From the NCBI GenBank assembly GCA_031289755.1, contig JAITOU010000027.1, forward strand, positions 5,643 to 69,642: DNA of 64,000 nt, written 5' to 3'. Positions 3,235 to 52,045 of the stretch are shown here, in pieces. The stretch's first letter is position 1; every line of letters begins with the position of its first letter. The DNA is from Clostridiales bacterium (GTDB taxonomy: Bacteria; Bacillota; Clostridia; Christensenellales; JAISNN01). A program made the position numbers and the translations under genes. The notes beneath the pieces were generated by a model. It did no database searches. It was given only the letters and a program-made list of their open reading frames with translations, and was not told where the DNA came from.

Positions 3235-4911
3235 TTAAAAACCGAGAGCCGAGCCGGTGTATATCTCTCCGGTTTTGAGATTGAAGTATAATTCTTTTTC
3301 CGTTCCGTCTTCGGCAAAGGTTATTTTTATATCCTGTTGGGAGATGTATTCGGCGGAGATGATTTTTGAAGCACGTTTTGTAAAGGCGTTTTTAAGAGCT
3401 TCGGTTTGTCTTGGGTCGTACTTGTTGATGTCGTCGGAAACAAAGAGAACGCCGCCGAACAAATTGTTTATGCGTGCGAGAAGAAGCTTTTGTTCTTCGG
3501 TAAACTTGATGTTGTCGTTGCGGAGAAAAAAGACGTCGGGGTCGCCGCAAAAGGCTCTGCCGTTTAGGTGACGGCGGAAGATTGTGTTGTTGATAGAATT
3601 TTGGGTGGAGATGATTTCGGCGTTGACACCTAAGGTGTTGTAATATCTTCCTTTGTAGGTCAGGTCGGCGTCGCAGCCCGTGCGGCAGGCATCGACATAT
3701 CCGAATGCCGCGCCGAGCGGAACGCCGCAGCCTAATATCAGCTTGTCCTTTGCGCATTCGCGCAAAAATTCCATAGCTTCGCACATAATCGTTCCGCGTG
3801 TTTTGTTGTTTCTGGGCTGCATACATTGCGAATAAAGAAAATCGAGTTTGAGCATATCGAATTTCCATTCGCCGGTCACGACGTCAAAAACATTTTTTAT
3901 GTATTTGCGAACGTCTTCGTTGTAGATATCAAGGCTGTACGCGCCTTTCCATGCGACCACTCCGAGCAGGGGTTTGCCGGTCTTATTGTCTTTTATCAGC
4001 CAATCGGGGTGCTGTGCCGCGAGCTTTGAAGCTCTTTGGGCATTGAACGGAGCGAGCCACAGTCCGGCGAGAAAGCCTGCGTCGTGGATTTTTTGAGCGG
4101 CATACGCCATTCCGTTCGGGAATTTTGACGGGTTAGGGTCGAGCCAATCGCCGACAAAGGTTTCGTAGCCGTCGTCAATTTGAAAAATATTTGCTTTGTC
4201 CTTGACCTTTGTCAAGCCTTCTAAGTCGCGGAGTATTATATCCTCGTCTATTTTTTGGAAGTAATTGTACCAGCTTGTATAGCCGGACATAGCTTTGATT
4301 TTCAAATCCTTTATTCCGTACGCCGAAAAATATTTGTCAAAAACGTCGTCGTATTCGCCCGAGATGATGGCTATATCAAAGACCTTGTATTTGCCGTCTA
4401 AGGTCAGCCCTTCGACGTCTTTTTCTATGACAAAAGAGCCGACGTTCATGTCGCGCTTAAAAATCGTAAAGCCTTCTCTTTCGGACAGCGAGCCTAATAG
4501 CCGTACTTCGCTGCCGTGACGGAAATAGCAGTAGGTAAAGCTGTGAAAAAGACCTTTCTTTTTGGGATAATCCACAAACAAATAATCGCCGGAGACAGCC
4601 GCGAGAGCTTTGAGCTTAGGGTGAATTTCGGCGATAGGCGTCACGCCCGTTTGCTTGTCGCCGATACCGTATTCACGCGACGTAGTCCATGCGGAATATC
4701 CGTTGGAATAAAAAAGCTCGTCTTGAAGGCGGTCTATTGTGTATAAGAGCGCAAATTTTTTGAGCGAGCAGGGTAGCTTTGTCGTCAAAAACATTTGCAA
4801 ACGGTCGGCTTTTATAGAGTATTCTATGTCATAGTGTTCCGTATTGAGCGCAGTTTGAGAATACTTGACGCCGTTTAATTCATATTCGATTGAGAGAGAA
4901 AAATTGTCCAT
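3235..4911 (-). CDS. alpha-galactosidase (GH36/clan GH-D melibiase-type)
   Basis: 558 aa. Motifs: FQIDDGYETFVGDWL, GLWLAPF, HPDWLIKD, FDMLKLDFLY and CGDPDVFFLR, typical of melibiase-family enzymes. Confidence 0.8.
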   Translation of the reverse strand: MDNFSLSIEYELNGVKYSQTALNTEHYDIEYSIKADRLQMFLTTKLPCSLKKFALLYTIDRLQDELFYSNGYSAWTTSREYGIGDKQTGVTPIAEIHPKLKALAAVSGDYLFVDYPKKKGLFHSFTYCYFRHGSEVRLLGSLSEREGFTIFKRDMNVGSFVIEKDVEGLTLDGKYKVFDIAIISGEYDDVFDKYFSAYGIKDLKIKAMSGYTSWYNYFQKIDEDIILRDLEGLTKVKDKANIFQIDDGYETFVGDWLDPNPSKFPNGMAYAAQKIHDAGFLAGLWLAPFNAQRASKLAAQHPDWLIKDNKTGKPLLGVVAWKGAYSLDIYNEDVRKYIKNVFDVVTGEWKFDMLKLDFLYSQCMQPRNNKTRGTIMCEAMEFLRECAKDKLILGCGVPLGAAFGYVDACRTGCDADLTYKGRYYNTLGVNAEIISTQNSINNTIFRRHLNGRAFCGDPDVFFLRNDNIKFTEEQKLLLARINNLFGGVLFVSDDINKYDPRQTEALKNAFTKRASKIISAEYISQQDIKITFAEDGTEKELYFNLKTGEIYTGSALGF

Positions 4912-9949: not shown

Positions 9950-9988
9950 TAAAAAATAAAAAAGGCGCGAAAAATTGCGTCTTTTTTA
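9950..9988. terminator. bidirectional intrinsic terminator
   Basis: An A-run, then the hairpin aggcgc/gcgtct (9963-9982), then a T-run. It lies between the convergent genes ending at 9846 (+) and 10011 (-). Confidence 0.55.
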
Positions 9989-10010
9989 TATTTGCTTTCA
10001 AGCACAAAAA

Positions 10011-36317: not shown

Positions 36318-36626
36318 ATTAAATTGCTCTCCTTATTAAGAATTGTTATTAATAATATATTAGCACATAAATTTTAGTTTGTCAATATTTTTAAGTAAAT
36401 TTTTTAATTTTTTTATAAGTGATACGCTCATTCGCATGATAGACGGCTTTATTGCTCAAAGACTGCGTAGTATGCTTGCTTTTAGGTTTTTTTGCGGCGT
36501 TTATAAGGCTTTTATAGGGGATTGGGTTCACAAAGAGATAAAAGAATTACTTATGGGTTTATAAGTTTTTTTGCGGTCATGCGCCGTGATTTTTGTCGAT
36601 TTGTTGTTTACTTCTCAAAATTTATG

Positions 36627-36704
36627 TGATATAATCTTATCCACTGAACAAAGGAGTTCATATTTTTAGGGCATTTTTGCCGTAAAATATGGCTCTTTTT
36701 TTTA
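36627..36704 (+). promoter_or_regulatory. extended -10 promoter plus leader: TTATCCA, AAAGGA-hexaloop hairpin, intrinsic terminator (candidate ANTAR target)
   Basis: tg-a-tataat at 36627-36635; ttatcca at 36637-36643. Hairpin tgaac-AAAGGA-gttca at 36645-36660. Terminator agggcattttt-gccgt-aaaatatggctct plus T7 at 36668-36704. The glutamate synthase ATG is 65 nt further downstream. Confidence 0.5.
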
Positions 36705-36768
36705 TACAAAAGGCTTTTTATATAGAAGCCGGATAAAGGAAAAAAGAATTAGTTTAAAAGGATTTTAT

Positions 36769-37872
36769 ATGTTGAAAGAAGGTCAAATAAGGATTCCGTC
36801 GGGGTGCGCGATATCAGGAATCATCAATAAAGACGGCAAGCGGATAGACGGCGGCGAAATAGCCAGGTCTATTGCCGTTATGCACGACCGCTCCAACGGA
36901 CTCGGCGGCGGCTTTGCAGGCTACGGAATATATCCCGAATATAAGGATTATTATGCTTTTCATATTTTTTATACCGACGTCGCGGCTAAGCAAGCGTGCG
37001 AAAGCTTTATCGAAGGGCATTTTGACATAATCAATCTATCCAAAATTCCCGTCCGCAAGATACCCGAAATCACCGACGAGCCGCTAATCTGGCGTTATTT
37101 TGTCGCGCCTTTGCCGACAAAGCTTCACGACAGTCAGCTCGACGAGAACGAATTTACTCTGAGATGCGTCTTTACTATGAATACAAAATTAAAGGGAGTT
37201 TACGTTTTTTCGTCCGGCAAAAATATGGGAGTCTTTAAAGCCGTAGGCTTCCCCGAAGACGTGGCGCGCTTTTACAAATTAGACGAATACAGCGGCTATT
37301 CATGGGTCGCTCACGGTCGTTATCCGACAAATACTCCGGGCTGGTGGGGCGGCGCGCATCCTTTTGCTATACTCGATTTTTCGGTCGTGCATAACGGCGA
37401 GATATCGTCTTATGACGCCAACCGCAGATTTATAGAAATGTTCGGTTATAAATGCACGCTTCAAACCGATACGGAGGTCATCACATATATATGGGATTAT
37501 CTGATAAGACGCTTGAAGCTCACTATGACGGAAGCCGCAGAGGTCATTGCCGCTCCTTTTTGGGAAAAGATAAAGACAATGCCGGACGCGGACAGAGAGA
37601 GACTGACGTATTTTAGAACGGTCTATCCGAGTCTGCTTGTAACGGGACCTTTTTCTATCATCGTCGGCTTTGAAGGCGGCTTATTGGCTCTCAACGACCG
37701 CTTAAAGCTCCGTTCTATGGTAGTGGGAGAAAAGAACGATACCGTATATATCGCAAGCGAAGAATGCGCTATACGCGAGATTGAGCCGTCGCTTGACAGA
37801 GTGTGGGCTCCCGTCGGCGGTGAACCGGTCATCGTCAAATTGAACCAAACGGGGGAAAACAAATGCCTATAA
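36769..37872 (+). CDS. glutamate synthase, class-II glutamine amidotransferase subunit (archaeal-type split GltB)
   Basis: N-terminal IPSGCAISGI nucleophile context, HGRYPTNTPG and VHNGEISSY motifs. Confidence 0.85.
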   Translation: MLKEGQIRIPSGCAISGIINKDGKRIDGGEIARSIAVMHDRSNGLGGGFAGYGIYPEYKDYYAFHIFYTDVAAKQACESFIEGHFDIINLSKIPVRKIPEITDEPLIWRYFVAPLPTKLHDSQLDENEFTLRCVFTMNTKLKGVYVFSSGKNMGVFKAVGFPEDVARFYKLDEYSGYSWVAHGRYPTNTPGWWGGAHPFAILDFSVVHNGEISSYDANRRFIEMFGYKCTLQTDTEVITYIWDYLIRRLKLTMTEAAEVIAAPFWEKIKTMPDADRERLTYFRTVYPSLLVTGPFSIIVGFEGGLLALNDRLKLRSMVVGEKNDTVYIASEECAIREIEPSLDRVWAPVGGEPVIVKLNQTGENKCL

Positions 37873-39368
37873 ATTATGATGACAATACCTACGAGGTTAT
37901 AAGAAATCAAGACAGGTGCATAAATTGCCGCGTCTGCGAGCGTCAATGCGCTAATCTTGTGCATAAATACAGCGAATATTACGGACGAATGACTTCGGAC
38001 TGCATATCTTGCGTCGATTGTCAGAGATGTGTTTCGCTCTGTCCGACAAAGGCTTTAAAGATTATCAAAAATCCTAACAGTTACAGAGATAACGCAAATT
38101 GGAACGAAGCGGCGATAAAGAGCGTCTACAAGCAAGCCGGTTCGGGCGGCGTTTTGCTTTCTTCGATGGGTACGCCGGAGGCCTATCCCGTCTATTGGGA
38201 CAAAATCCTTATCAATGCGTCGCAGGTGACAAATCCGTCCATAGACCCTTTGAGAGAGCCTATGGAGACGCGTATCGCCTTGGGCAAAAGACCGCAGAAT
38301 ATTGTCCGCGACGGGAACGGAAATATAGTCAACACCGTCAAAAACTCTCTTTTTTTGAATGTGCCGATAATGTTTTCGGCTATGTCCTACGGCTCGATAA
38401 GCTACAACGCTCACAAATCTCTCGCGATTGCCGCCGAAAAGCTCGGTATTTTTTATAATACCGGCGAAGGCGGCTTGCACAGGGATTTCTATAAATACGG
38501 CAAAAACACGATAGTGCAGGTCGCGTCGGGCAGGTTCGGCGTCTTTAAGGATTTTTTGAATGCCGGAGCGGCTGTGGAAATCAAAATGGGGCAGGGTGCA
38601 AAGCCGGGTATCGGCGGACACCTTCCGGGCGAAAAGATAGGCGAGGACGTGTCGAGAACGAGAATGATACCGCAGGGAGTAGACGCCATTTCTCCGGCTC
38701 CGCATCACGACATTTATTCCATAGAGGATTTGCGTCAGCTCGTCTATTCTTTAAAGGAAGCGACAAATTACAAAAAGCCCGTAATAGTCAAAATCGCCGC
38801 CGTCCATAATGTCGCGGCTATCGCCAGCGGCGTAGCGCGCAGCGGCGCGGACATCATAGCGATAGACGGATTTAGGGGCGGAACGGGCGCAGCCCCTACG
38901 AGAATACGCGACAACGTAGGCATACCGATAGAATTGGCTTTGGCAAGCGTAGACCAAAGATTGAGAGAAGAAGGCATAAGGAACGAGATATCTCTCGTCG
39001 CGGGCGGAAGCATAAGAAACAGCGCGGATATCGTCAAGGCGATTGCGCTCGGCGCGGACGCGGTATATATAGCGACGGGGGCTTTGCTTGCGCTCGGCTG
39101 TCATCTCTGCCGTTCCTGTCATTTGGGCAAATGCAATTGGGGAATAGCGACGCAAAACCCCGACCTTGTAAAACGCCTAAACCCCGAAACCGGAAGCGAA
39201 CGGCTCGTCAATCTTATAACGGCATGGACGCACGAGATAGAAGAAATGATGGGCGGTATGGGTATAAATTCCATAGAAGCCCTTAAAGGCAACAGACTCA
39301 TGCTTCGGGGCGTCGGCATGACCCAAAAGGAGCTGGATATTCTCGGAATATTTCATGCCGGAGAATAG
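37863..39368 (+). CDS. glutamate synthase FMN-binding/synthase subunit with N-terminal 4Fe-4S ferredoxin segment
   Basis: CINCRVCERQC and CVDCQRCVSLCP clusters, then MSYGSIS, QGAKPGIGGHLPGEK, GFRGGTGAAP and GGSIRNSADIVKAIALGAD. Overlaps the upstream gene by 10 nt. Confidence 0.9.
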   Translation: MPINYDDNTYEVIRNQDRCINCRVCERQCANLVHKYSEYYGRMTSDCISCVDCQRCVSLCPTKALKIIKNPNSYRDNANWNEAAIKSVYKQAGSGGVLLSSMGTPEAYPVYWDKILINASQVTNPSIDPLREPMETRIALGKRPQNIVRDGNGNIVNTVKNSLFLNVPIMFSAMSYGSISYNAHKSLAIAAEKLGIFYNTGEGGLHRDFYKYGKNTIVQVASGRFGVFKDFLNAGAAVEIKMGQGAKPGIGGHLPGEKIGEDVSRTRMIPQGVDAISPAPHHDIYSIEDLRQLVYSLKEATNYKKPVIVKIAAVHNVAAIASGVARSGADIIAIDGFRGGTGAAPTRIRDNVGIPIELALASVDQRLREEGIRNEISLVAGGSIRNSADIVKAIALGADAVYIATGALLALGCHLCRSCHLGKCNWGIATQNPDLVKRLNPETGSERLVNLITAWTHEIEEMMGGMGINSIEALKGNRLMLRGVGMTQKELDILGIFHAGE

Positions 39369-39414
39369 ACGCGGCTCCGGTAAGTGCGGACAGTTTTTTT
39401 GAAAGATTGGAGGA

Positions 39415-39849
39415 ATGTATAAAGTCATGAAAAAGATTTACGTTCGGGAAGAATGGTGTTTGAAATGCCGTCTGTGCGAATACATTTGCGCTTTTGCAAA
39501 TTCGGGCTGCGGCGATATAGTCGCCGCGCTCAAAGATAAGCCGATAATGCCGCGCATAACTGTCGAAGAAGAAGGAAAAATATCTTACGCCGTGTCGTGC
39601 CGTCATTGCGACGACGCATTGTGCGTCAAGGGCTGTATCAGCGGCGCGATAAGCAGGGTGGACGGCGTGGTCACAATCGACAAAAACAAATGCGTCGGCT
39701 GCTGTACCTGCATTCTTTCCTGTCCTTACGGCGCTATCGCATACGGAGCGGACGGAACGGCGACAAAATGCGAGCTGTGCGTTCAAAATGCCGGCGGCTC
39801 TCCGATGTGCGTCAAATATTGTCCTAACCGCGCCATTGTTTTGGAATAA
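39415..39849 (+). CDS. 4Fe-4S dicluster ferredoxin-like subunit
   Basis: CxxCxxC and CVGCCTCILSCP motifs. The start is uncertain (ATG 39415 lies 1 nt after GGAGG; the alternative is ATG 39427). Confidence 0.75.
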   Translation: MYKVMKKIYVREEWCLKCRLCEYICAFANSGCGDIVAALKDKPIMPRITVEEEGKISYAVSCRHCDDALCVKGCISGAISRVDGVVTIDKNKCVGCCTCILSCPYGAIAYGADGTATKCELCVQNAGGSPMCVKYCPNRAIVLE

Positions 39850-39885
39850 AACGCGGATTATATTTTATCAAGGGAAAAACTCATT

Positions 39886-41100
39886 ATGAATTACGTTATT
39901 ATAGGAAATTCCATAGCCGCCGTCGGCGGCATAGAAGGCATACGCCGTACGGACGGCGACGGTAACATCACGGTCGTAGGCGCAGAGCCGCACCACGTTT
40001 ATTCGCGTCCGCTCATATCGTATTTGTTGGAAGGCAAAACCGATTCGGAGAGAATAAAATACCGACCGGACGATTTTTACAAAAAAAATAAATGCACGCT
40101 CAAAAAAGGCGTAAGAGCGGAGAGTATAGATACGGACAAAAAGACCGTATTTTTGGACGACGGCGAAGCGTTGCCCTTCGATAAGCTTTTGATAGCTACC
40201 GGCGCACGCCCCTTTGTTCCCAAGATAAGCGGACTCGAAAATCACGAGTATCACACCTTTATGACTCTCGGCGACGCGTACGGTCTGGAAAAGAAATTGA
40301 AGTCAACAAAGGACGCTAAGGTCCTGATACTCGGAGCCGGACTTATCGGTCTGAAATGCGCCGAAGCGATATATCGCTATGCCAAGGAAATCACTGTCGC
40401 CGATATGGCTGACAGAGTGCTGCCGAGCATTCTCGATACCGAAGGGTCGGCGGTGATAAAAAAACATTTAGAATACAAGGGAATAAGGTTTTTGCTTTCT
40501 ACGGCTGTTGAGCTTGACAAAATGAAATTCGACGTATTGTGCGTCTGCACCGGCGTGATACCCGAAGCTAATTTGGCAAAGGACGCCGGAATAGAAACGG
40601 GGCGCGGAATATATATAGACGCCGAAGCAAAAACAAGCAAGGACGGTATATATGCCGCAGGCGATTGCACCGAAGGTTACAGCGCGGTGACGGGCAGGCG
40701 CGGAGCTATCGCGATATTGCCCAACGCCTACATTCAAGGCGAAACGGCAGGCATAAATATGGCGGGCGGCAATGCCGTCTATGACAAGGCTATGCCGATG
40801 AACGCAATAGGGTTTTTTGGAAAGCATATCCTGACCGCGGGTCTTTATGAAGGCGAAGAGATAAAGAGCGGAAGCGTAAGCGGCGGAGTCTTCAAAAAGC
40901 TTTTTGTAAAAGACGGAAAGCTCAAAGGCTTTATCTTTATCGACGATTTTAAAAGAGCGGGCTTGTATACCGCGCTGATACGCGACGGAATAGATTTGAC
41001 GGGCATAGACGACGCGACGCTTTTGGACGATATCGGCTTTAAGCTTTATCCTAAGGCAGAGCGCGACAAGGTATTGCGCAACCAAAACGAAGGAGTTTAA
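39886..41100 (+). CDS. NAD(P)/FAD-dependent pyridine-nucleotide-disulfide-type oxidoreductase subunit
   Basis: N-terminal YVIIGNSIAAVGG and a second dinucleotide fold VLILGAGLIGLKCAE, plus IYAAGDC. Confidence 0.85.
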   Translation: MNYVIIGNSIAAVGGIEGIRRTDGDGNITVVGAEPHHVYSRPLISYLLEGKTDSERIKYRPDDFYKKNKCTLKKGVRAESIDTDKKTVFLDDGEALPFDKLLIATGARPFVPKISGLENHEYHTFMTLGDAYGLEKKLKSTKDAKVLILGAGLIGLKCAEAIYRYAKEITVADMADRVLPSILDTEGSAVIKKHLEYKGIRFLLSTAVELDKMKFDVLCVCTGVIPEANLAKDAGIETGRGIYIDAEAKTSKDGIYAAGDCTEGYSAVTGRRGAIAILPNAYIQGETAGINMAGGNAVYDKAMPMNAIGFFGKHILTAGLYEGEEIKSGSVSGGVFKKLFVKDGKLKGFIFIDDFKRAGLYTALIRDGIDLTGIDDATLLDDIGFKLYPKAERDKVLRNQNEGV

Positions 41101-41105
41101 CGGAG

Positions 41106-41828
41106 ATGACGATAGACGCGAAGGGAAAATATTTTCAGACTCTCAACAGAGAAATAAAGGAATGCGCCGACGGCGAAATCATAATCGATAATTGCAACGG
41201 ACAGAGATACATCGGCAGCGGTCTCGAAAACAAAACCGTAAAAATCAACGGTGTTCCGGGCAATGCGCTCGGTTCTTATCTTGACAAATGCGATATATAC
41301 GTCAATGGGAACGCCCAGGATGCCACAGGCGACACGATGAACGGCGGAAGGATATTTATCTACGGCAATTCCGGCGACGCCACAGGCTACGCCATGCGCG
41401 GCGGAACGATATACATCAAGGGCAATGTCGGCTACCGTGCCGGAGTGCATATCAAGTCCTACAAGGAGTATAAGCCGGTCATAGTTGTCGGCGGCAAGGC
41501 GGGAAACTTTCTCGGCGAGTACCAGGCGGGGGGCGTAATCATAGTCTTGAATCTCAATAAGGAAGCGAGAGCGGCAGATGATTTTATCGCTAACGGAATG
41601 CACGGCGGCGAGATATACATAAGGACGGAGAACGCCGAGTCGCTTCATTTGTCGGAGCGGCTTATACACAAAAAAGCGGACAAAAAAGATTTTGAAAAAA
41701 TATCCTTTTATTTAGGTGAGTTTTGCAATGCTTTCGGTTATAATTATAACGATGTTGTAAAAGGAGCTTTTATAAAAATCACGCCGGATACTCAAAATCC
41801 GTACAAGCAATTATATGTAAACAATTAA
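41106..41828 (+). CDS. glutamate synthase GXGXG-repeat (GltB C-terminal domain-like) subunit
   Basis: Repeated beta-helix turns: VNGNAQDATGDTMNGGRIFIYGNSGDATGYAMRGGTIYIKGNVGYRAG. Confidence 0.85.
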   Translation: MTIDAKGKYFQTLNREIKECADGEIIIDNCNGQRYIGSGLENKTVKINGVPGNALGSYLDKCDIYVNGNAQDATGDTMNGGRIFIYGNSGDATGYAMRGGTIYIKGNVGYRAGVHIKSYKEYKPVIVVGGKAGNFLGEYQAGGVIIVLNLNKEARAADDFIANGMHGGEIYIRTENAESLHLSERLIHKKADKKDFEKISFYLGEFCNAFGYNYNDVVKGAFIKITPDTQNPYKQLYVNN

Positions 41829-41895
41829 AGCCGCACGGGCGGTCAAAGAGGTACGCCGTAAAGTTTTGGCTTTACAGAGTAATAGGGGGTATGTA

Positions 41896-43128
41896 ATGGA
41901 GTTTACCGAAGCGTCATTGTATGAATTTATCAATTCAAACGACGTAAGATTTATACGTTTGGGTTTTTGCGATATTTTCGGGGTACAAAAAAACATCTCG
42001 GTTATGCCGGGAATGTTTTTGCGCGCTATGGAAGAGGGAATACCCTTCGATACGGCGGCAGTTGACGGCTTTTTGGATATCGAAAAAGCCGATTTGTATT
42101 TAAAGCCGGATATCAAGACCTTTTCGTTAGTGCCGTGGCGTTCGAGTAACGACATGGTGATAAGGTTTATATCGGATATCGTCAAGACGGACGGAGCAGA
42201 CTTTGAGGGAAGCAGCCGAAACATTTTAAAAAAGGTCAGACAGCGCGCCAAAAAAATGGGCTATTCCTGCAATATCGGAGTGAAGTGCGAGTTTTATCTG
42301 TTTGAAAACGACGAAAACGGTTATCCGACAAAGACGCCTTTTGACAACGCGGGATATTTTGACATTTCTCCGCTCGACAAGGGCGAGGACATAAGGCGTG
42401 AAATATGCCTGAATTTGGACAAAATGGGCATAAGACCCGAAAGCTCTCATCACGAACAAGGTCCGGGTCAGAACGAAATCAATTTTAAATATTCCGACAT
42501 ATTGACGACGGCGGACAACGTAATGACCTTTAAATGGGTCGTATCGACGATAGCGGCACGTCACGGCGCTACTGCAAATTTTGACCCTAAGCCTATCCAA
42601 AATGTCAACGGAAACGGTATGCACATCAATATCGCTCTCGTGCATGACGGCGAAAATCTCTTCAAGTTGAAAGACGGAGAGCTTGTCGAGCCCGCAAAGC
42701 AGTTTGTCGCCGGCATAACCGAACGCATCTCCGAGATATCGCTGTTTTTAAATTCAGTCAAATCTTCTTATGACAGATTGGGCAAGTTTACCGCACCGCT
42801 CAATGTTTCGTGGTCTTACGACAACAGAAGCCGCCTTATCCGTATCAATGCCGAGAAGGAATTTTGTCATATGGAATTGCGCTCACCCGACCCGGTCTGC
42901 AATACCTATCTGGCATTTGCGCTGATATTGGCAGCCGGACTCGAAGGTATAGAAAAGAAGTCGGAGCTGTGTCCGCCTTACTGTGAAAACTCGGTGGGGC
43001 AAAAGCATTTAAAGAGCTTGCCTAAGTCCATAGACGAAGCGATAGCACTCGCAAAAAACAGTGCCTTTGTCAAAAGCGTCATACCCGAAAAGGTATTGGA
43101 CAAGTATATATCCGTCAAATCGGAATAG
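41896..43128 (+). CDS. glnA: glutamine synthetase (type I family, short form)
   Basis: ATG at 41896 has AGGGGG upstream. IRFIRLGFCDIFG beta-grasp, HHEQGPGQNEINF, NGNGMHINIAL and MELRSPDP motifs. Confidence 0.9.
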   Translation: MEFTEASLYEFINSNDVRFIRLGFCDIFGVQKNISVMPGMFLRAMEEGIPFDTAAVDGFLDIEKADLYLKPDIKTFSLVPWRSSNDMVIRFISDIVKTDGADFEGSSRNILKKVRQRAKKMGYSCNIGVKCEFYLFENDENGYPTKTPFDNAGYFDISPLDKGEDIRREICLNLDKMGIRPESSHHEQGPGQNEINFKYSDILTTADNVMTFKWVVSTIAARHGATANFDPKPIQNVNGNGMHINIALVHDGENLFKLKDGELVEPAKQFVAGITERISEISLFLNSVKSSYDRLGKFTAPLNVSWSYDNRSRLIRINAEKEFCHMELRSPDPVCNTYLAFALILAAGLEGIEKKSELCPPYCENSVGQKHLKSLPKSIDEAIALAKNSAFVKSVIPEKVLDKYISVKSE

Positions 43129-43219
43129 CCTTAGAGCAGATAACTGCATTATTACCGCTTAGGCAAATTATTATATTGCTTCTCCGATAATAATCCGTAA
43201 AACCTTAGGGAGATATATT

Positions 43220-43786
43220 TTGAGCGAAAATGTTCTTATAGTTTCGTCGCTGGAAAAAGACGCGGAGAAGCTTAGCCGTCTCTTTCATTCGTATGATATG
43301 GAGACGACTATTGTCAGCTACGCGAGCAAGGCGCGCCGTAAGCTTTTGGAGAACGATTTTTCACTCATAGTCGTCAACACGCCCTTGTCCGACGAGTTCG
43401 GTACGGAGTTTGCGATAAACGCCGCCGAAAAAACCTATGCCGGAATTTTGCTTTTTGTCAAAGCCGACCTTTTTGCGACGACCGTCGAAAAGTCCGAGCA
43501 AAGCGGCGTATTTGTTCTCGAAAAACCGCTGACCGCACCCATTAACGAGATTATAAGGCTGATGAGAGCCGTGTCGTTCAGAATGCGTTCGGCACGCCGC
43601 GAAAACGAAAAGCTTACGAGAAAAATATCCGAAATGCGCACGGTGGAACGTGCGAAAATCGCGCTCATACAGTATGAAAATATGTCGGAGGAGGAAGCTC
43701 ACCGCTTCATCGAAAAACAAGCCATGGACAAGCGCGTCGGCAGGGGAGAAATCGCCGCCGAGATTTTAAAGAGATTTGGGGATTAA
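43220..43786 (+). CDS. ANTAR-domain RNA-binding antiterminator with a pseudo-receiver N-terminal domain
   Basis: TTG start with AGGGAG upstream. C-terminal ANTAR region: MRTVERAKIALIQYENMSEEEAHRFIEKQAMDKRV. The receiver-like half has VLIVSS and SLIVVN where canonical receivers have DD and the phospho-accepting D. Confidence 0.85.
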   Translation: MSENVLIVSSLEKDAEKLSRLFHSYDMETTIVSYASKARRKLLENDFSLIVVNTPLSDEFGTEFAINAAEKTYAGILLFVKADLFATTVEKSEQSGVFVLEKPLTAPINEIIRLMRAVSFRMRSARRENEKLTRKISEMRTVERAKIALIQYENMSEEEAHRFIEKQAMDKRVGRGEIAAEILKRFGD

Positions 43787-43790
43787 GTGA

Positions 43791-43830
43791 ACGCCGCGCA
43801 AATTAGATAAATTTTAAGCGGCGTCTTTTT
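43791..43830 (+). terminator. intrinsic terminator formed by an inverted copy of the 45-bp repeat unit
   Basis: acgccgc-(20-nt loop)-gcggcgt followed by cttttt, starting 5 nt after the ANTAR gene stop. The sequence is the reverse complement of the unit acgccgcttaaaatttatctaatttgcgcg. Confidence 0.6.
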
Positions 43831-43905: not shown

Positions 43906-44165
43906 TACTTGCTTAAAATTCATCTCCTTTGCGCGTTGTTCCCTAAGTCAACGCCGCTTAAAATTCATCTCCTTTGCGCGTTGTTCCCTAAGGGAACGCC
44001 GCTTAAAATTCATCTATTTTGCGCGTTGTTTCACAAGTCAACGCCGCTTAAAATTTATCTAATTTGCGCGTTGTTTCACAAGTCAATGCCGCTTAAAATT
44101 CATCTAATTTGCGCGTTGTTCCCTAAGTCAACGCCGCTTAAAATTTATATCATTTTCGTGGTCTT
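43906..44165. repeat. 45-bp tandem repeat, 5 full units plus 1 partial
   Basis: Units start at 43911, 43956, 44001, 44046, 44091 and 44136. Consensus is gcttaaaatYcatctNNtttgcgcgttgttYcMYaagKSaaYgcc. Units are contiguous with no spacers. Each unit can fold (aacgccgc/gcgcgtt). Confidence 0.9.
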
Positions 44166-44264
44166 TCTTGTCTTTGACGCATTTTTTATTTGTCAGTTAA
44201 TCTCATTTGCGGTATGCGCAGGGTATAGGCGTATGCCGCATTTTTGCATTTTTTGGCTTTTTTT

Positions 44265-44282
44265 GTTTTGCAAGAAGTCTAA
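44265..44282. repeat. solo family-1 element terminus
   Basis: gttttgcaagaagtcta matches the family-1 right end. No partner terminus is recognisable to the left. Confidence 0.5.
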
Positions 44283-44354
44283 TTTATAAAAAAATCAAAA
44301 ATAGGGGGATAGGCATTGTAAAAATATCCTTTTTATGATATAATGTAAAGCGAA

Positions 44355-44522: not shown

Positions 44523-44637
44523 TGGCGTGTTCACATTTGAATAATGTTAACACGTCAAATACGGCTTTTTTAAAAAAGCGGAAAATACTTAAAAAATCAT
44601 GCTATGCCTTTTCCGATTATTTTACAGAAAGGAGAAT

Positions 44638-46263
44638 ATGGACTATAATTTTATGACATTGTCAAAACTTTGGGCGGATTATGTTCCCGATGCTTTCGCA
44701 TTCGATGCGACCGCTTCCGAAGAATCCGAAAAGGACGGCATTGTTTACAAAAAAACCTTTTTTACTTCCGAAAAAGCTTTGGACGGAGACGTAAGGGTCG
44801 CGTGCGGTATTACTCACAAAAAAGACTGCAACGGTCATGTAGTCGTGTATGCCGGCGACCTTTTTAAGGGCGGCGACAAGGAGATGATTTCACGTCTTGC
44901 AGAAGCCGGATATATTGTCGCGGATATTGATTTTTTACGGTCGGAATATCCCGAAAGTTTGTTTTACGGCAAGCCCGACGTTTCTTCGCCGTATTATCTG
45001 TATGCAAAGCCGTCCGCTAAGTATACTTCGTGGTACGTTTGGGCAAAAATGCTCAAAAGAGCGGCGGTATATATGCAGAGCGTCTACGGTTCGGATAAGG
45101 TTATCCTTATGGCGGAGAATAAGGCAACGACCGCCGCATATATGGCTGCCGGTTCGGACAAAAGCTTTTCGGCTCTTGTGACGGTATCGGGCGGCGGATA
45201 TATGTCTTATGACGGAATGTACAAGTACGGCGGCGAAACTCTCGTCATAGACGAAGAAAGAGAATGCTTTATCGCCGGAATAGAGGCGCAGACATATGCT
45301 AAGTTTATAGATATTCCCGTGCTTGTCCTTTTATCGACAAACGGCGCTTTGACCGACATCGACAGGGGCATGGATTTGTTTGACATCTTCGCCGGTCAAA
45401 AGACGCTCGTTATAAGCCCGAATCTCAGAGATTGTATCACGTCCGCCGCCGCCTACAATATCCCTATCTGGCTCGGCGAAGCGTTGAGCGGAGTACCGCT
45501 CAAAAAGAACCCTTCGGGAGAGATTGTCGTCAGCGAATATCAATACTATTTTAATGTCAAGACGGACGATTTTGACGGTATAGAAGCGGTAACGGTATAT
45601 TACAGTACGACAAATACCGTTCCATATTACAGAGAGTGGAAAAAAATCAAAGCGGAAGAGACCGTAGCCGGAGAATATATCGCCAAGCTCGAAATCGGCG
45701 AAGAAGCGGAGATACTCTTTGCCTTTGCGGACGTACATTATACGGACGGGCGTAATCTCTCGTCAAAATCCGTTGTAAAAACTCCTTTGGACGTAATACA
45801 AAAAGAAACAAATATCAAGAACCGTATCATATATTCCAGAGAAACCGGCATCAATTTTGTACCGTTAGGGCTTGACAGCCTTATTGCCGGCGAAAATCTC
45901 ATATCCCAATCGCCGGGGGCATACGGCATAACCGGCTTGACCTCTAAGGACGGCGGTATGATAAATTACAGCATCGGCTCTGCCGATACGGGCGGCGACG
46001 CGGCGGCTCTCCAAGCCGACGCTTACACTACGTCGGACAAAAGCTTTGTGATAAGTATCTTTAAATACGGCACGGACGGTACCGACGGCAAATATTCTTG
46101 CAGTGTAGATTTAAAGGCAGGCGACGAATGGCAGCGTATTTCACTCGAACCGCGTATGTTCAAAAACGACGGATTAAAATACGCCGACAGCTTTGAATGC
46201 GTAAAAATATTAGAGATAGAGAATGCTGACGGTATTATCTTTAACAACATTTTGTTTGTATAG
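44638..46263 (+). CDS. hypothetical protein; the N-terminal half resembles an acetyl-esterase/dienelactone-hydrolase alpha/beta fold but has no obvious GxSxG nucleophile
   Basis: ATG at 44638 has AAAGGAG upstream. LW.DY.P...F opening and HVVVYAGD...AEAGYIVADIDF. The position expected for GxSxG reads MAENKAT. Weak, by-eye similarity only. Confidence 0.45.
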   Translation: MDYNFMTLSKLWADYVPDAFAFDATASEESEKDGIVYKKTFFTSEKALDGDVRVACGITHKKDCNGHVVVYAGDLFKGGDKEMISRLAEAGYIVADIDFLRSEYPESLFYGKPDVSSPYYLYAKPSAKYTSWYVWAKMLKRAAVYMQSVYGSDKVILMAENKATTAAYMAAGSDKSFSALVTVSGGGYMSYDGMYKYGGETLVIDEERECFIAGIEAQTYAKFIDIPVLVLLSTNGALTDIDRGMDLFDIFAGQKTLVISPNLRDCITSAAAYNIPIWLGEALSGVPLKKNPSGEIVVSEYQYYFNVKTDDFDGIEAVTVYYSTTNTVPYYREWKKIKAEETVAGEYIAKLEIGEEAEILFAFADVHYTDGRNLSSKSVVKTPLDVIQKETNIKNRIIYSRETGINFVPLGLDSLIAGENLISQSPGAYGITGLTSKDGGMINYSIGSADTGGDAAALQADAYTTSDKSFVISIFKYGTDGTDGKYSCSVDLKAGDEWQRISLEPRMFKNDGLKYADSFECVKILEIENADGIIFNNILFV

Positions 46264-49950: not shown

Positions 49951-50024
49951 TTGACACAAAAAATTGTTTGTGATATTATTTATCCATAGCAAAGGCGCGG
50001 TATATTTACGGCGTCTTTTTTTTG
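49951..50024 (+). promoter_or_regulatory. promoter plus leader: TTATCCA, AAAGGC motif, intrinsic terminator (second copy of the nitrogen-operon leader)
   Basis: ttgaca at 49951-56, N17 ending in tga, tattat at 49974-79, ttatcca at 49980-86, and aaaggc at 49991-96. Hairpin ggcgcgg-tatattta-cggcgtc plus T8 at 49994-50024. The Amt-PII ATG is 257 nt further downstream. Confidence 0.5.
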
Positions 50025-50280
50025 TTTTAAAGCGTTGCTTCCGATGATTTCGGTTTGCGCGCTTTGTCCGTTATGTCGGATACGGTTTTTTTTGAGCGGT
50101 ATTCGGTGATGCGGAGCTATAAAATTTAATTGTATATCGGTTGGCATCGGCACAACGGCGTGTTCCTGACTTTAAGGAGTATGCCGTTCTTTTTTTTGAC
50201 GGAGAGGCGGCAAAAGGGGATTCGCGTACGGACCGTAAATAATTTTGATAAAAATAATAAAATAAATTTTTGGAGGCATT

Positions 50281-51948
50281 ATGGATACTTTTATTTGGTT
50301 TCTAATCGGAGCCGCGCTGGTTTTCTTCATGCAGTGCGGATTTGCGATGGTGGAGTCGGGCTTGACGAGAGCAAAAAACGCCGGCAATATCATCATGAAA
50401 AATCTCATGGATTTTTCTATCGGGACGGTCGTCTTTATGACGCTCGGCTTTGGACTGATGATGGCGGAGGATTATGTCGCGGGCATAATCGGCGTGCCTA
50501 ATCTCGACATCTTCTTTAACTTCAAAGACCCTGCGGTGGCTTCGAGCTTTGTTTTTAACCTTGTTTTTGCGGCGACGGCGGCGACAATCGTGTCGGGAGC
50601 TATGGCGGAGCGCACAAAGTTTTCGGCATACTGTATATACAGCCTTGTCATCAGCGCGGTCATCTATCCGATAGAAGCAGGCTGGGTATGGAATACTGCC
50701 GGTTGGCTTGTCGGTATGGGCTACATCGACTTTGCAGGCTCGTCGGCTATTCATATGGTCGGCGGTATAACCGCCTTAATCGGCGCGATTTTCTTAGGGC
50801 CGAGACTCGGCAAATACAGAAAGCAAAAGGACGGCTCGATAAAGTCGGTAGCTATTCCGGGACACAATCTCGCGATAGCGGCTCTCGGCGTCTTTATACT
50901 TTGGTTCGGTTGGTACGGCTTTAACGGCGCGGCGGCGACCGAGCCGGGACAATTAGCTCTGATTTTTGTCAATACTACGATATCTCCCGCCGTCGCCTGC
51001 GTTGCGACAATGGGGTATACATGGATAAAAAATAAAAAGCCCGACGTGTCTATGACGCTCAACGGCGCGCTTGCCGGGCTTGTCGCCATTACCGCTGGGT
51101 GTTCGGATGTAAATCCTCTCGGCGCGGCGATAATCGGTCTTATATCGGGAGTCCTTGTCGTAGTCGCAGTCGAATTTATCGACCTGAAATTGCACGTTGA
51201 CGACCCTGTGGGAGCGGTAGCCGTACACGGTGTCAACGGTATCTTCGGTACTATTGCGGTAGGTTTTTTTGCTACCGACGGCGGTCTTTTTTACGGCGGC
51301 GGCTTTAAGCTCTTGGGTGTGCAGGTACTCGGTGTAATCGCTATCGCCGCATGGACGGTCGCGACGATGTCGCTTGTCTTCTTTCTCGTCAAAAAGTTTC
51401 ACGGACTCAGGGTATCTAAGGAAGACGAGGTCAAGGGTCTTGACATCACCGAACACGGTTTGGTCAGCGCATACGCCGGATTTTCCACAGCGTTTGAAGA
51501 CCTTTATGACGGTATAGACGTTCCGGAAGGGGCTGTCGCGATAGACGAAGCAGTACCCGTGCAGGTCAAGACGGCAAAGGGCATAGCGTCAGACGTCAAG
51601 ATGTCAAAGGTAGAAATTATATGTAAGGAAACAAAATTTGACGCCCTAAAAGAAGCCATGAGCAAAATCGGGGTAACGGGCATGACGATAACAAAGGTGT
51701 TGGGTTGCGGCGCGCAAAAGGGCAGTACCGAAAAATATCGCGGCGCGGACGTCGAAATCACACTCCTGCCAAAAATACAAGTCGAAATCGTCGTTTGCAA
51801 AGTACCCGTTAAGACGGTGGTAGACACCGCCAAAAAGATTCTATATACGGGAAATATCGGCGACGGCAAGATATTTGTCTACGACGTCGAAAATGTCATC
51901 AAAATACGCACGGGCGAAGAAGGCTACGACGCCCTGCAAGACAGCTAA
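50281..51948 (+). CDS. amtB: ammonium transporter fused in-frame to a C-terminal PII (GlnK/GlnB) domain
   Basis: A single 555-aa ORF. The Amt core carries FMQCGFAMVESG, AAATIVSGAMAER, DFAGSSAIHMVGG and AVHGVNGIFGT. A ~45-aa linker is followed by MSKVEIICK...VTGMTITKVLGCGAQKGSTEKYRGADV...GDGKIFVYDVENVIKIRTGEEG, a PII fold with T-loop Tyr. Confidence 0.9.
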   Translation: MDTFIWFLIGAALVFFMQCGFAMVESGLTRAKNAGNIIMKNLMDFSIGTVVFMTLGFGLMMAEDYVAGIIGVPNLDIFFNFKDPAVASSFVFNLVFAATAATIVSGAMAERTKFSAYCIYSLVISAVIYPIEAGWVWNTAGWLVGMGYIDFAGSSAIHMVGGITALIGAIFLGPRLGKYRKQKDGSIKSVAIPGHNLAIAALGVFILWFGWYGFNGAAATEPGQLALIFVNTTISPAVACVATMGYTWIKNKKPDVSMTLNGALAGLVAITAGCSDVNPLGAAIIGLISGVLVVVAVEFIDLKLHVDDPVGAVAVHGVNGIFGTIAVGFFATDGGLFYGGGFKLLGVQVLGVIAIAAWTVATMSLVFFLVKKFHGLRVSKEDEVKGLDITEHGLVSAYAGFSTAFEDLYDGIDVPEGAVAIDEAVPVQVKTAKGIASDVKMSKVEIICKETKFDALKEAMSKIGVTGMTITKVLGCGAQKGSTEKYRGADVEITLLPKIQVEIVVCKVPVKTVVDTAKKILYTGNIGDGKIFVYDVENVIKIRTGEEGYDALQDS

Positions 51949-52000
51949 TCAAATACCGATAATGAAAATGATGTAAAGGAGAGTGCAGACACTCCAAACA

Positions 52001-52045
52001 AAAAAACAAAGCCGTTAGCTTGATTGCGGACGGCTTTGTTTTTTA
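52001..52045 (+). terminator. intrinsic terminator of amt-PII
   Basis: Hairpin caaagccgt ... acggctttg (9 bp) followed by T6. Confidence 0.75.

Follow-up and report, generated by a model that had tools for sequence, protein, structure and literature searches.

Two nitrogen operons of a Clostridiales bacterium, one for glutamate synthase (glt) and one for an ammonium transporter fused to PII (amt-PII), begin with short leaders that look alike, and the first operon ends with a gene for an ANTAR protein. Both lie on the plus strand of the 64,000-nucleotide stretch of DNA analysed here (the window). What do the two leaders share, and is the likeness in the DNA or in the RNA? Is the ANTAR protein reading them, and does it use one RNA hairpin or two? 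What would activate it? An initial annotation, made from the window's letters, had described in both leaders a TG-extended -10, TTATCCA 0-1 nt past it, CAAAGG in the context of a hexaloop, and then a hairpin with a T-run, and all of these are present. It took TTATCCA as part of the shared motif, left a second hexaloop hairpin to be found, and proposed that the ANTAR protein antiterminates both operons, an interpretation that is, as a whole, partly supported.

The operon behind the first leader (36769..43786) encodes, according to Pfam, a split glutamate synthase (GATase from 36769, Glu_synthase from 37863, Fer4 from 39415, Pyr_redox from 39886 and GXGXG from 41106), followed by glnA (41866-43128) and the 188-aa ANTAR regulator (43220..43786; PF03861). 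The glnA-ANTAR intergenic stretch of the window holds no terminator, and a terminator read from the sequence (ACGCCGC...GCGGCGT followed by CTTTTT, 43793..43830) closes the operon after the ANTAR gene; the regulator gene thus belongs to the operon that its product would antiterminate. Two ORFs just past this terminator (43909-44289, 126 aa; 44599-46263, 554 aa) have no Pfam match. The glt promoter (36607..36635) matches the consensus at 10/12 positions, with a -35 TTTACT (36607-36612), a 17-nt spacer, the TG extension (36627-36628) and a -10 TATAAT (36630-36635). It is followed by an attenuator (36645-36703) made of two overlapping elements. The first is a candidate antiterminator hairpin, TGAAC/AAAGGA/GTTCA (36645..36660), with a 5-bp stem closed by the pair C36649-G36656 and a stability of -4.0 kcal/mol when folded alone; its hexaloop departs from the family consensus described below, and orthologous hairpins and covariation speak for it. 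The second is an intrinsic terminator (36650..36703; T8 at 36696-36703) in which the hexaloop and the hairpin 3' arm open the 5' arm, and whose fold reaches -22.4 kcal/mol (z -5.7).

The amt-PII promoter (49951..49979) is closer still to the consensus, with 11/12 matches (-35 TTGACA 49951-49956, 17-nt spacer, TG 49971-49972, -10 TATTAT 49974-49979), and the gene that it serves (50281..51948) encodes an ammonium transporter fused to PII (Pfam: Ammonium_transp 400 bits, P-II 89 bits). The leader in between is more elaborate. Its first attenuator (amt #1, 49989..50023) has a degenerate hairpin, GC/AAAGGC/GC (49989-49998), which overlaps a terminator pairing as AAAGGCGC.GUA....UAC.GCGUCUUU and ending in T8 (50016-50023). 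With a 2-bp stem and -0.9 kcal/mol, this hairpin is no more stable than shuffles and falls short of the at least 3 bp of a canonical ANTAR target; the initial annotation was right in contrasting a clean 5-bp stem in glt with a weak one in amt. It was also right that the weak stem overlaps the terminator 5' arm in the amt leader, and folding extends this to glt, AAAGG opening the terminator 5' arm in both. A better copy of the motif, missed in that first reading, lies further downstream (amt #3, 50149-50197): the candidate hairpin GGCAC/AACGGC/GUGUU has a 5-bp stem (-3.1 kcal/mol), overlaps a 14-bp terminator followed by T8, and resembles the GCAC-AAAGGC-GTGT amt leaders of loci L008, L021, L038 and L044. 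The window thus holds three copies of the motif: glt, amt #1 and amt #3. The middle of the amt leader (50029-50093) has a hairpin, AAAGCGUUGC...GCGCGCUUU, preceding a terminator-like one, TGTCCG-TTATGT-CGGATA, with CGG and T8 (50065..50093); the latter lacks the motif, having neither an A..G hexaloop nor a competing upstream arm. A 21-codon ORF starting at 50051 lacks a Shine-Dalgarno sequence and was discounted for that reason.

Is this arrangement conserved? We fetched 80 loci around related ANTAR genes, every one of them chosen through its ANTAR gene. Close relatives of the protein occur only in metagenomes, and relatives of 40-50% identity in Clostridia and some Treponema. The gene directly 5' of the ANTAR gene is glnA in 77 of the 80 loci, as in the window; about 30 have a split glt operon ahead of glnA, and about 15 an Amt-PII gene in the vicinity. 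In front of glt, amt and, where it is the first gene, glnA, the leaders follow one plan: a near-consensus promoter, a short hairpin, a variable segment, and then a repeat of the hairpin 5' arm with a complement of the loop and a T-run (typically TGAAC AAAGGC GTTCA ... TGAAC GCCTTTTT). The closing pair of the hairpin is invariably C-G and its hexaloop reads AANGRN, AAAGGC being by far the commonest; in the alignment A1 and A2 are invariant and G4 is present in at least 90%. The A1/G4 hexaloop hairpin in which the initial annotation saw an ANTAR signature is thus the conserved, covarying core of nitrogen-gene leaders across the 80 ANTAR-linked loci. The terminator 5' arm is built, at its base, from the loop and 3' arm of this hairpin, and the terminator 3' arm repeats the hairpin 5' arm. 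Consequently, the hairpin 5' arm and the terminator 3' arm compete for one partner, and hairpin and terminator are mutually exclusive.

The motif precedes glt, glnA, glnN (GSIII), asnA, asnB and amt genes, and the glnN, asnA and asnB genes that carry it are divergently transcribed. In A. thermocellus both the glt and the glnN leaders have the single-hairpin motif, and the glnA-ANTAR linkage is found there as well. Seven Treponema loci (L016, L019, L042, L050, L076, L077 and L080) have the glnA-ANTAR pair, perhaps a sign of transfer from one phylum to another; within 330 nt 5' of glnA these seven carry no motif. A search of Rfam (release 15; gathering score and E≤10) with the leaders of the window and seven loci gave no match; the best weak one, gltS (RF02982), at 15.5 bits against a cut-off of 47.5, was taken as chance. 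Elsewhere in the window there is an unrelated Gut-1 RNA (RF01706; 12770-12842, plus strand; 59.6 bits, gathering score 50).

Could such a pattern arise by chance? An anchored scan of 1.3 Mb, with C-AANGNN-G, the loop complement and a T-run as sole anchors, gave 99 hits versus 7-21 in shuffles; it replaced earlier permissive hairpin/terminator scans that were too noisy (423 versus 199 and 326 versus about 115 in shuffles). From its anchors and the downstream gene, and not from stem pairing, 57 leaders were picked, and a hairpin stem of at least 4 bp is present in 52 of these 57 as opposed to 1 of the 42 remaining anchored hits, which are mostly ordinary terminators. Matches of the form TGC-AAGGGT-GTGC at HAD genes of Ruminococcus-type loci were likewise taken for ordinary terminators. 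When the leaders are aligned in fixed register (A2), pairing holds in 83% of the hairpin-helix cells, with 92 double changes and a covariation score of 0.597, compared with 0.205 in shuffles (0/500 reach 0.597) and 0.05-0.21 when the helix is slid, and the terminator helix has 93.4% paired cells, 188 double changes and a score of 0.655 versus 0.258; the independent changes are fewer than these cell counts, as much of the covariation separates gene classes. Stems are near-constant within a class: GAAC/GTTC for glt and glnA, CAGC/GCTG for glnN, asnA and some amt genes, CAC/GTG for other amt genes. The comparison establishes, as a prediction from sequence, two mutually exclusive and covarying helices directly past strong promoters of ANTAR-linked nitrogen genes.

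What, then, is TTATCCA? It lies at 36637-36643 in the glt leader, as discriminator or initial transcribed region, and at 49980-49986 in the amt leader. The pattern TTATCCA-N1-12-CAAAGG occurs twice in the window, in these two leaders, versus 0.04 expected; TTATCCA alone is not enriched (7 in the window versus 9 expected). Among the other loci it is retained in the glt leader of L084, and L001, the closest genome relative, has TTATTCCA instead; both are close relatives, and pattern matches in L018 and L041 fall inside coding DNA. The other 50 leaders lack it, and their spacers between -10 and hairpin are unrelated, which does not agree with its initial description as part of the shared motif. 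Since it lies across the expected start site, TTATCCA reads as a promoter-proximal sequence, lineage-specific and outside the conserved RNA motif. Could it be a DNA element nonetheless? TTATCCA together with the promoter core TGATAT(A/T)AT might form an operator or promoter element through which a transcription factor or the initiating nucleotide co-regulates the two operons, beside the attenuators or instead of them. About 22 nt are common to both window promoters, and the persistence of the sequence in the two relatives and its position over the start site fit such a role. However, it is missing from the other leaders and no commoner in the window than expected, it shows no visible dyad symmetry, no gene for a DNA-binding regulator is adjacent, and a DNA operator leaves the covarying hairpin and the terminator unexplained. 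We regard it as unlikely. A TnrA/GlnR-type box looked for by eye over both promoters has a mismatched right half-site.

Several other features of these 5' regions deserve mention. The 5' UAUCCAU of the amt transcript (49981-49987) could pair without a mismatch with AUGGAUA, which spans the amt start codon (50281-50287), and UUAUCC of the glt transcript (36637-36642) with GGAUAA at 36732-36737, of which L084 retains only GAUAA; both complementarities were noted post hoc and could be a helix closing 5' to 3' end or chance. Locus L083, whose ANTAR protein is 74% identical, has the glt promoter GGTATAAT and neither hairpin nor terminator ahead of the glt start (3400-3545); its attenuator is lost or was never gained. 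In L001, a direct repeat resembling GCATATAAACCGC recurs about five times in the segment from the attenuator to the glt start (1279-1397), with nothing similar in the window.

Does the regulator need one hairpin or two? The initial annotation had sought a second hexaloop hairpin, and such a hairpin is not conserved: one with an A..G hexaloop can be drawn inside the terminators of 12 of 57 leaders, where chance would give 4.9; apical loops measure anything between 3 and 20 nt, and true apical A..G hexaloops occur in three leaders only. There is no space for it upstream either. The promoter matches the consensus at 9/12 positions or better in 50 of 54 leaders, and in 40 of 50 a gap of 7-12 nt separates the end of the -10 from the first paired base, which puts the hairpin at about +1 to +5 of the transcript. 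In the window, none of the three elements has a second hexaloop hairpin, the terminator tips being UUUU, UAUU and GACUUUA. Measured against the published dual-hairpin ANTAR-target model, the hexaloop and its overlap with the terminator agree and the tandem hairpins do not; the conserved element corresponds to the terminator-overlapping "P2" of that model without the "P1" recruitment hairpin.

Might a second hexaloop have been overlooked, so that these are canonical dual-hairpin targets and the regulator, like EutV, needs both? The three leaders just mentioned are Ruminococcus-type amt leaders (L026 10759-10813, L028 7290-7344 and L030 2799-2853) with a second hexaloop, AAAGAA or AACGAA, at the terminator tip, a dual-hexaloop form nested within the terminator; the glnA-ANTAR genes of these loci have no attenuator. 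The glt leader of L007 can form AACC-AAAGUU-GGUU, and Table S2 of Ramesh 2012 lists dual-hairpin matches at Clostridial amt and GS genes. Against this, besides the low count of internal hexaloops, the variable apical loops and the tips seen in the window, glnN and asnA terminators have just 3-17 nt available inside the stem and the promoter leaves no room upstream. A dual-hairpin target is, we think, quite improbable for the family.

A covariance model of the terminator fold, R1, was built from 51 non-window leaders (alignment A3), and its counterpart R2 has the hairpin fold instead. R1 finds amt #1 (49983-50023; 28.0 bits, E 2.5e-4), amt #3 (50146-50193; 24.6 bits, E 0.0017) and glt (36642-36704; 21.9 bits, E 0.008), but window E-values are modest throughout (2.5e-4 to 0.27) and generic A-tract terminators score similarly: 21-24 bits on both strands at 52000-52045 (E 0.0025-0.01) and 20.5 bits at 9953-9989 (E 0.016). 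These two are ordinary bidirectional A-tract terminators with AAAGCC/AAAGGC bases, located between or after unrelated genes. The one at 52000-52045 was rejected as a fourth copy on three grounds: it matches on both strands, follows amt-PII and precedes a Fic gene. R2 separates the two groups, with 24.2 bits for amt #1 and 17.4 and 15.1 bits for the other leader elements compared with 10-12 bits for generic terminators. Hence, motif searches must score the upstream arm, generic terminators reaching 20-24 bits in R1. The check proposed in the initial annotation, an alignment of leaders from related loci with a covariance model, came out in favour of conservation backed by covariation, and models built without the window place its three elements among their top matches. 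That the leaders are ordinary promoter-proximal terminators, or that a factor other than an ANTAR protein reads the hairpin, the ANTAR-like loop being an A-tract joined to a G+C-rich terminator base, is very improbable indeed: the scores of generic terminators in R1 and the lack of an Rfam family would suit it, but the upstream arm is missing from generic terminators, whose scores fall in R2, the C-G closing pair, A1, A2 and G4 vary little or not at all, the motif is restricted to nitrogen genes beside an ANTAR gene (all loci being ANTAR-selected), and the 18 nt ahead of the terminator are too short for a riboswitch or T-box.

Is the protein at the end of the glt-glnA operon equipped to read these hairpins? 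Its ANTAR domain (residues 130-183) scores 50.9 bits with PF03861 against a cut-off of 27.3. Across 78 family members, the EutV contacts K147, K149, E160 and M172 correspond to R144 (77/78), K146, E157 and M169 (each 78/78). EutV R142/K143 aligns with M139/R140 in the window regulator, and at the position of EutV Tyr164, which stacks on G4, every family member has a His (His161), as AmiR does. The AlphaFold2 model (pLDDT 91.3) predicts a receiver-like α/β domain, a long coiled-coil helix (108-153) and a three-helix ANTAR bundle, and matches the structures of RNA-bound EutV (6WW6_B, TM 0.77), EutV (6WSH, 0.73) and AmiR (1QO0, 0.58-0.66). The receiver-like domain has lost its acidic pocket: S9/S10 take the place of DD, which no family member has, and the phospho-Asp site at position 53 is N in 70/78 members, including the window protein, and D in 8/78. 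The lysine equivalent to CheY K109 is retained as K102. The missing pocket and the missing kinase gene next to the ANTAR gene had both been pointed out in the initial annotation; the former turns out to be family-wide, and no adjacent kinase gene was found. Judged by its residues, this is a genuine ANTAR protein with a receiver that is predicted to be non-phosphorylatable across the family.

How would the pieces work together? We think it likely that the leaders are NitR-type attenuators, in which the ANTAR protein brings about antitermination through a single hexaloop hairpin. The near-consensus promoter would fire, and the first nucleotides of the RNA would fold into the short, C-G-closed AANGRN hairpin. 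By homology, the ANTAR protein would bind this nascent hairpin, probably as a dimer on one loop, as EutV does. The bound hairpin would stay closed until RNA polymerase clears the T-run, allowing read-through into glt-glnA-ANTAR and amt-PII. If no active regulator is at hand, the far more stable terminator would displace the hairpin and transcription would stop after 60-70 nt. In the amt leader two such checkpoints would stand in series, and positive feedback would be expected at glt, the regulator being encoded within the operon that it antiterminates. Some observations count against these single-hairpin attenuators: the 2-bp stem of amt #1, the AAAGGA loop of glt, L083 with its missing attenuator, and the finding that EutV requires both hairpins for antitermination in vivo (PMC3369931, PMC8934654). 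It is also known, however, that a minimal ANTAR site needs no more than a single hexaloop and that the EutV dimer binds one hexaloop (PMC8934654).

How much of this has been seen before? A system of the same kind is NitR (formerly GlnR) of C. saccharobutylicum, an ANTAR antiterminator of GS/GOGAT genes according to PMC6316151. In the glnA-nitR-gltAB clusters of C. saccharobutylicum and C. acetobutylicum the ANTAR gene directly follows glnA and is linked to GOGAT, as here, and antitermination of GS/GOGAT under nitrogen limitation has been proposed (Stutz et al. 2007, cited in PMC6316151 and PMC4676874). Compared with the NitR cluster, the window has the order glt-glnA-ANTAR with archaeal-type split GOGAT subunits, and its regulon adds an amt-PII fusion with tandem attenuators; for the C. 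acetobutylicum NitR system an antisense RNA is described. For the orthologous Clo1313_2030-2036 cluster PMC4676874 gives co-expression. In addition, Ramesh 2012 (PMC3369931) reported ANTAR-type matches ahead of GS, GOGAT and amt genes of Firmicutes, with C. thermocellum amt among them. Given NitR and Ramesh et al., the regulon as such was already known. Two things set the present system apart from the published RNA family: there is one hairpin, placed 5'-terminally, and the receiver is dead throughout the protein family.

The eut leaders of Enterococcus faecalis, read by EutV/EutW (PMC3369931, PMC8934654), share with the window leaders the A1/G4 hexaloop, the conserved closing pair and the hairpin 3' half within the terminator 5' arm, and the proteins share fold and contact residues. 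EutV targets, however, have two hairpins, for recruitment and antitermination, both of them required, whereas here the terminator-overlapping one stands by itself, at the start of the transcript; EutW phosphorylates EutV, whereas the window protein has neither phospho-acceptor nor kinase and a His for the G4-stacking Tyr. In AmiR/AmiC of Pseudomonas aeruginosa and NasT/NasS the receiver-like domains also lack the phosphorylation residues, AmiR shares the His, and activity is set through sequestration by a partner protein, a precedent for partner control here, but AmiR and NasT targets are described as dual hairpins. A parallel for the RNA comes from Geobacter sulfurreducens, where GnfR binds a conserved CAGGCAANGGCGCC overlapping nitrogen-gene terminators (PMC2995071). 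This element reads GGC-AANGGC-GCC and so agrees with the leader family studied here in loop consensus and in the C-G closing pair, and its sites overlap the leader terminators of nifH, glnK and amtB; RNA binding and antitermination were shown experimentally for GnfR (PMC2995071). Unlike the window system, GnfR/GnfK consists of a phosphorylatable response regulator with its kinase, works at sigma-54 promoters, and belongs to a different phylum and a nitrogen-fixation gene set.

What would then switch the regulator on? As the receiver-like domain cannot be phosphorylated, one may guess that a protein or a ligand sets its activity instead. The initial annotation favoured a protein partner such as GS or PII; the two things that suggest it are the dead receiver and the adjacency of glnA, and it too is a guess. 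No gene with an AmiC/NasS-like periplasmic-binding-protein fold is adjacent, the conserved neighbour being glnA. Put more broadly, it is conceivable, though we hold it only tentatively, that an ANTAR switch not modelled before, in which one 5'-terminal hexaloop hairpin is enough for antitermination and a recruitment hairpin is dispensed with, is widespread in Clostridia and some Treponema, and that its permanently non-phosphorylatable regulator family senses nitrogen through a protein partner, most plausibly the GS encoded directly upstream.

For the family, these leaders suggest that dual-hairpin models under-detect such sites: Ramesh 2012 gives only amt for C. thermocellum, whose glt and glnN leaders carry the motif. 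An RNA signature of about 40 nt predicts a regulon of glt, glnA, glnN, asnA, asnB and amt in Clostridia, where nitrogen control is poorly understood, gut, rumen and cellulolytic species such as A. thermocellus included. The leaders are also a natural test case for one hexaloop as the minimal ANTAR site, and they isolate a question: what activates a non-phosphorylatable ANTAR protein that has no gene for an AmiC/NasS-like partner? If the tentative proposal above is true, a GS-type partner would be the missing nitrogen-sensing input of Clostridia.
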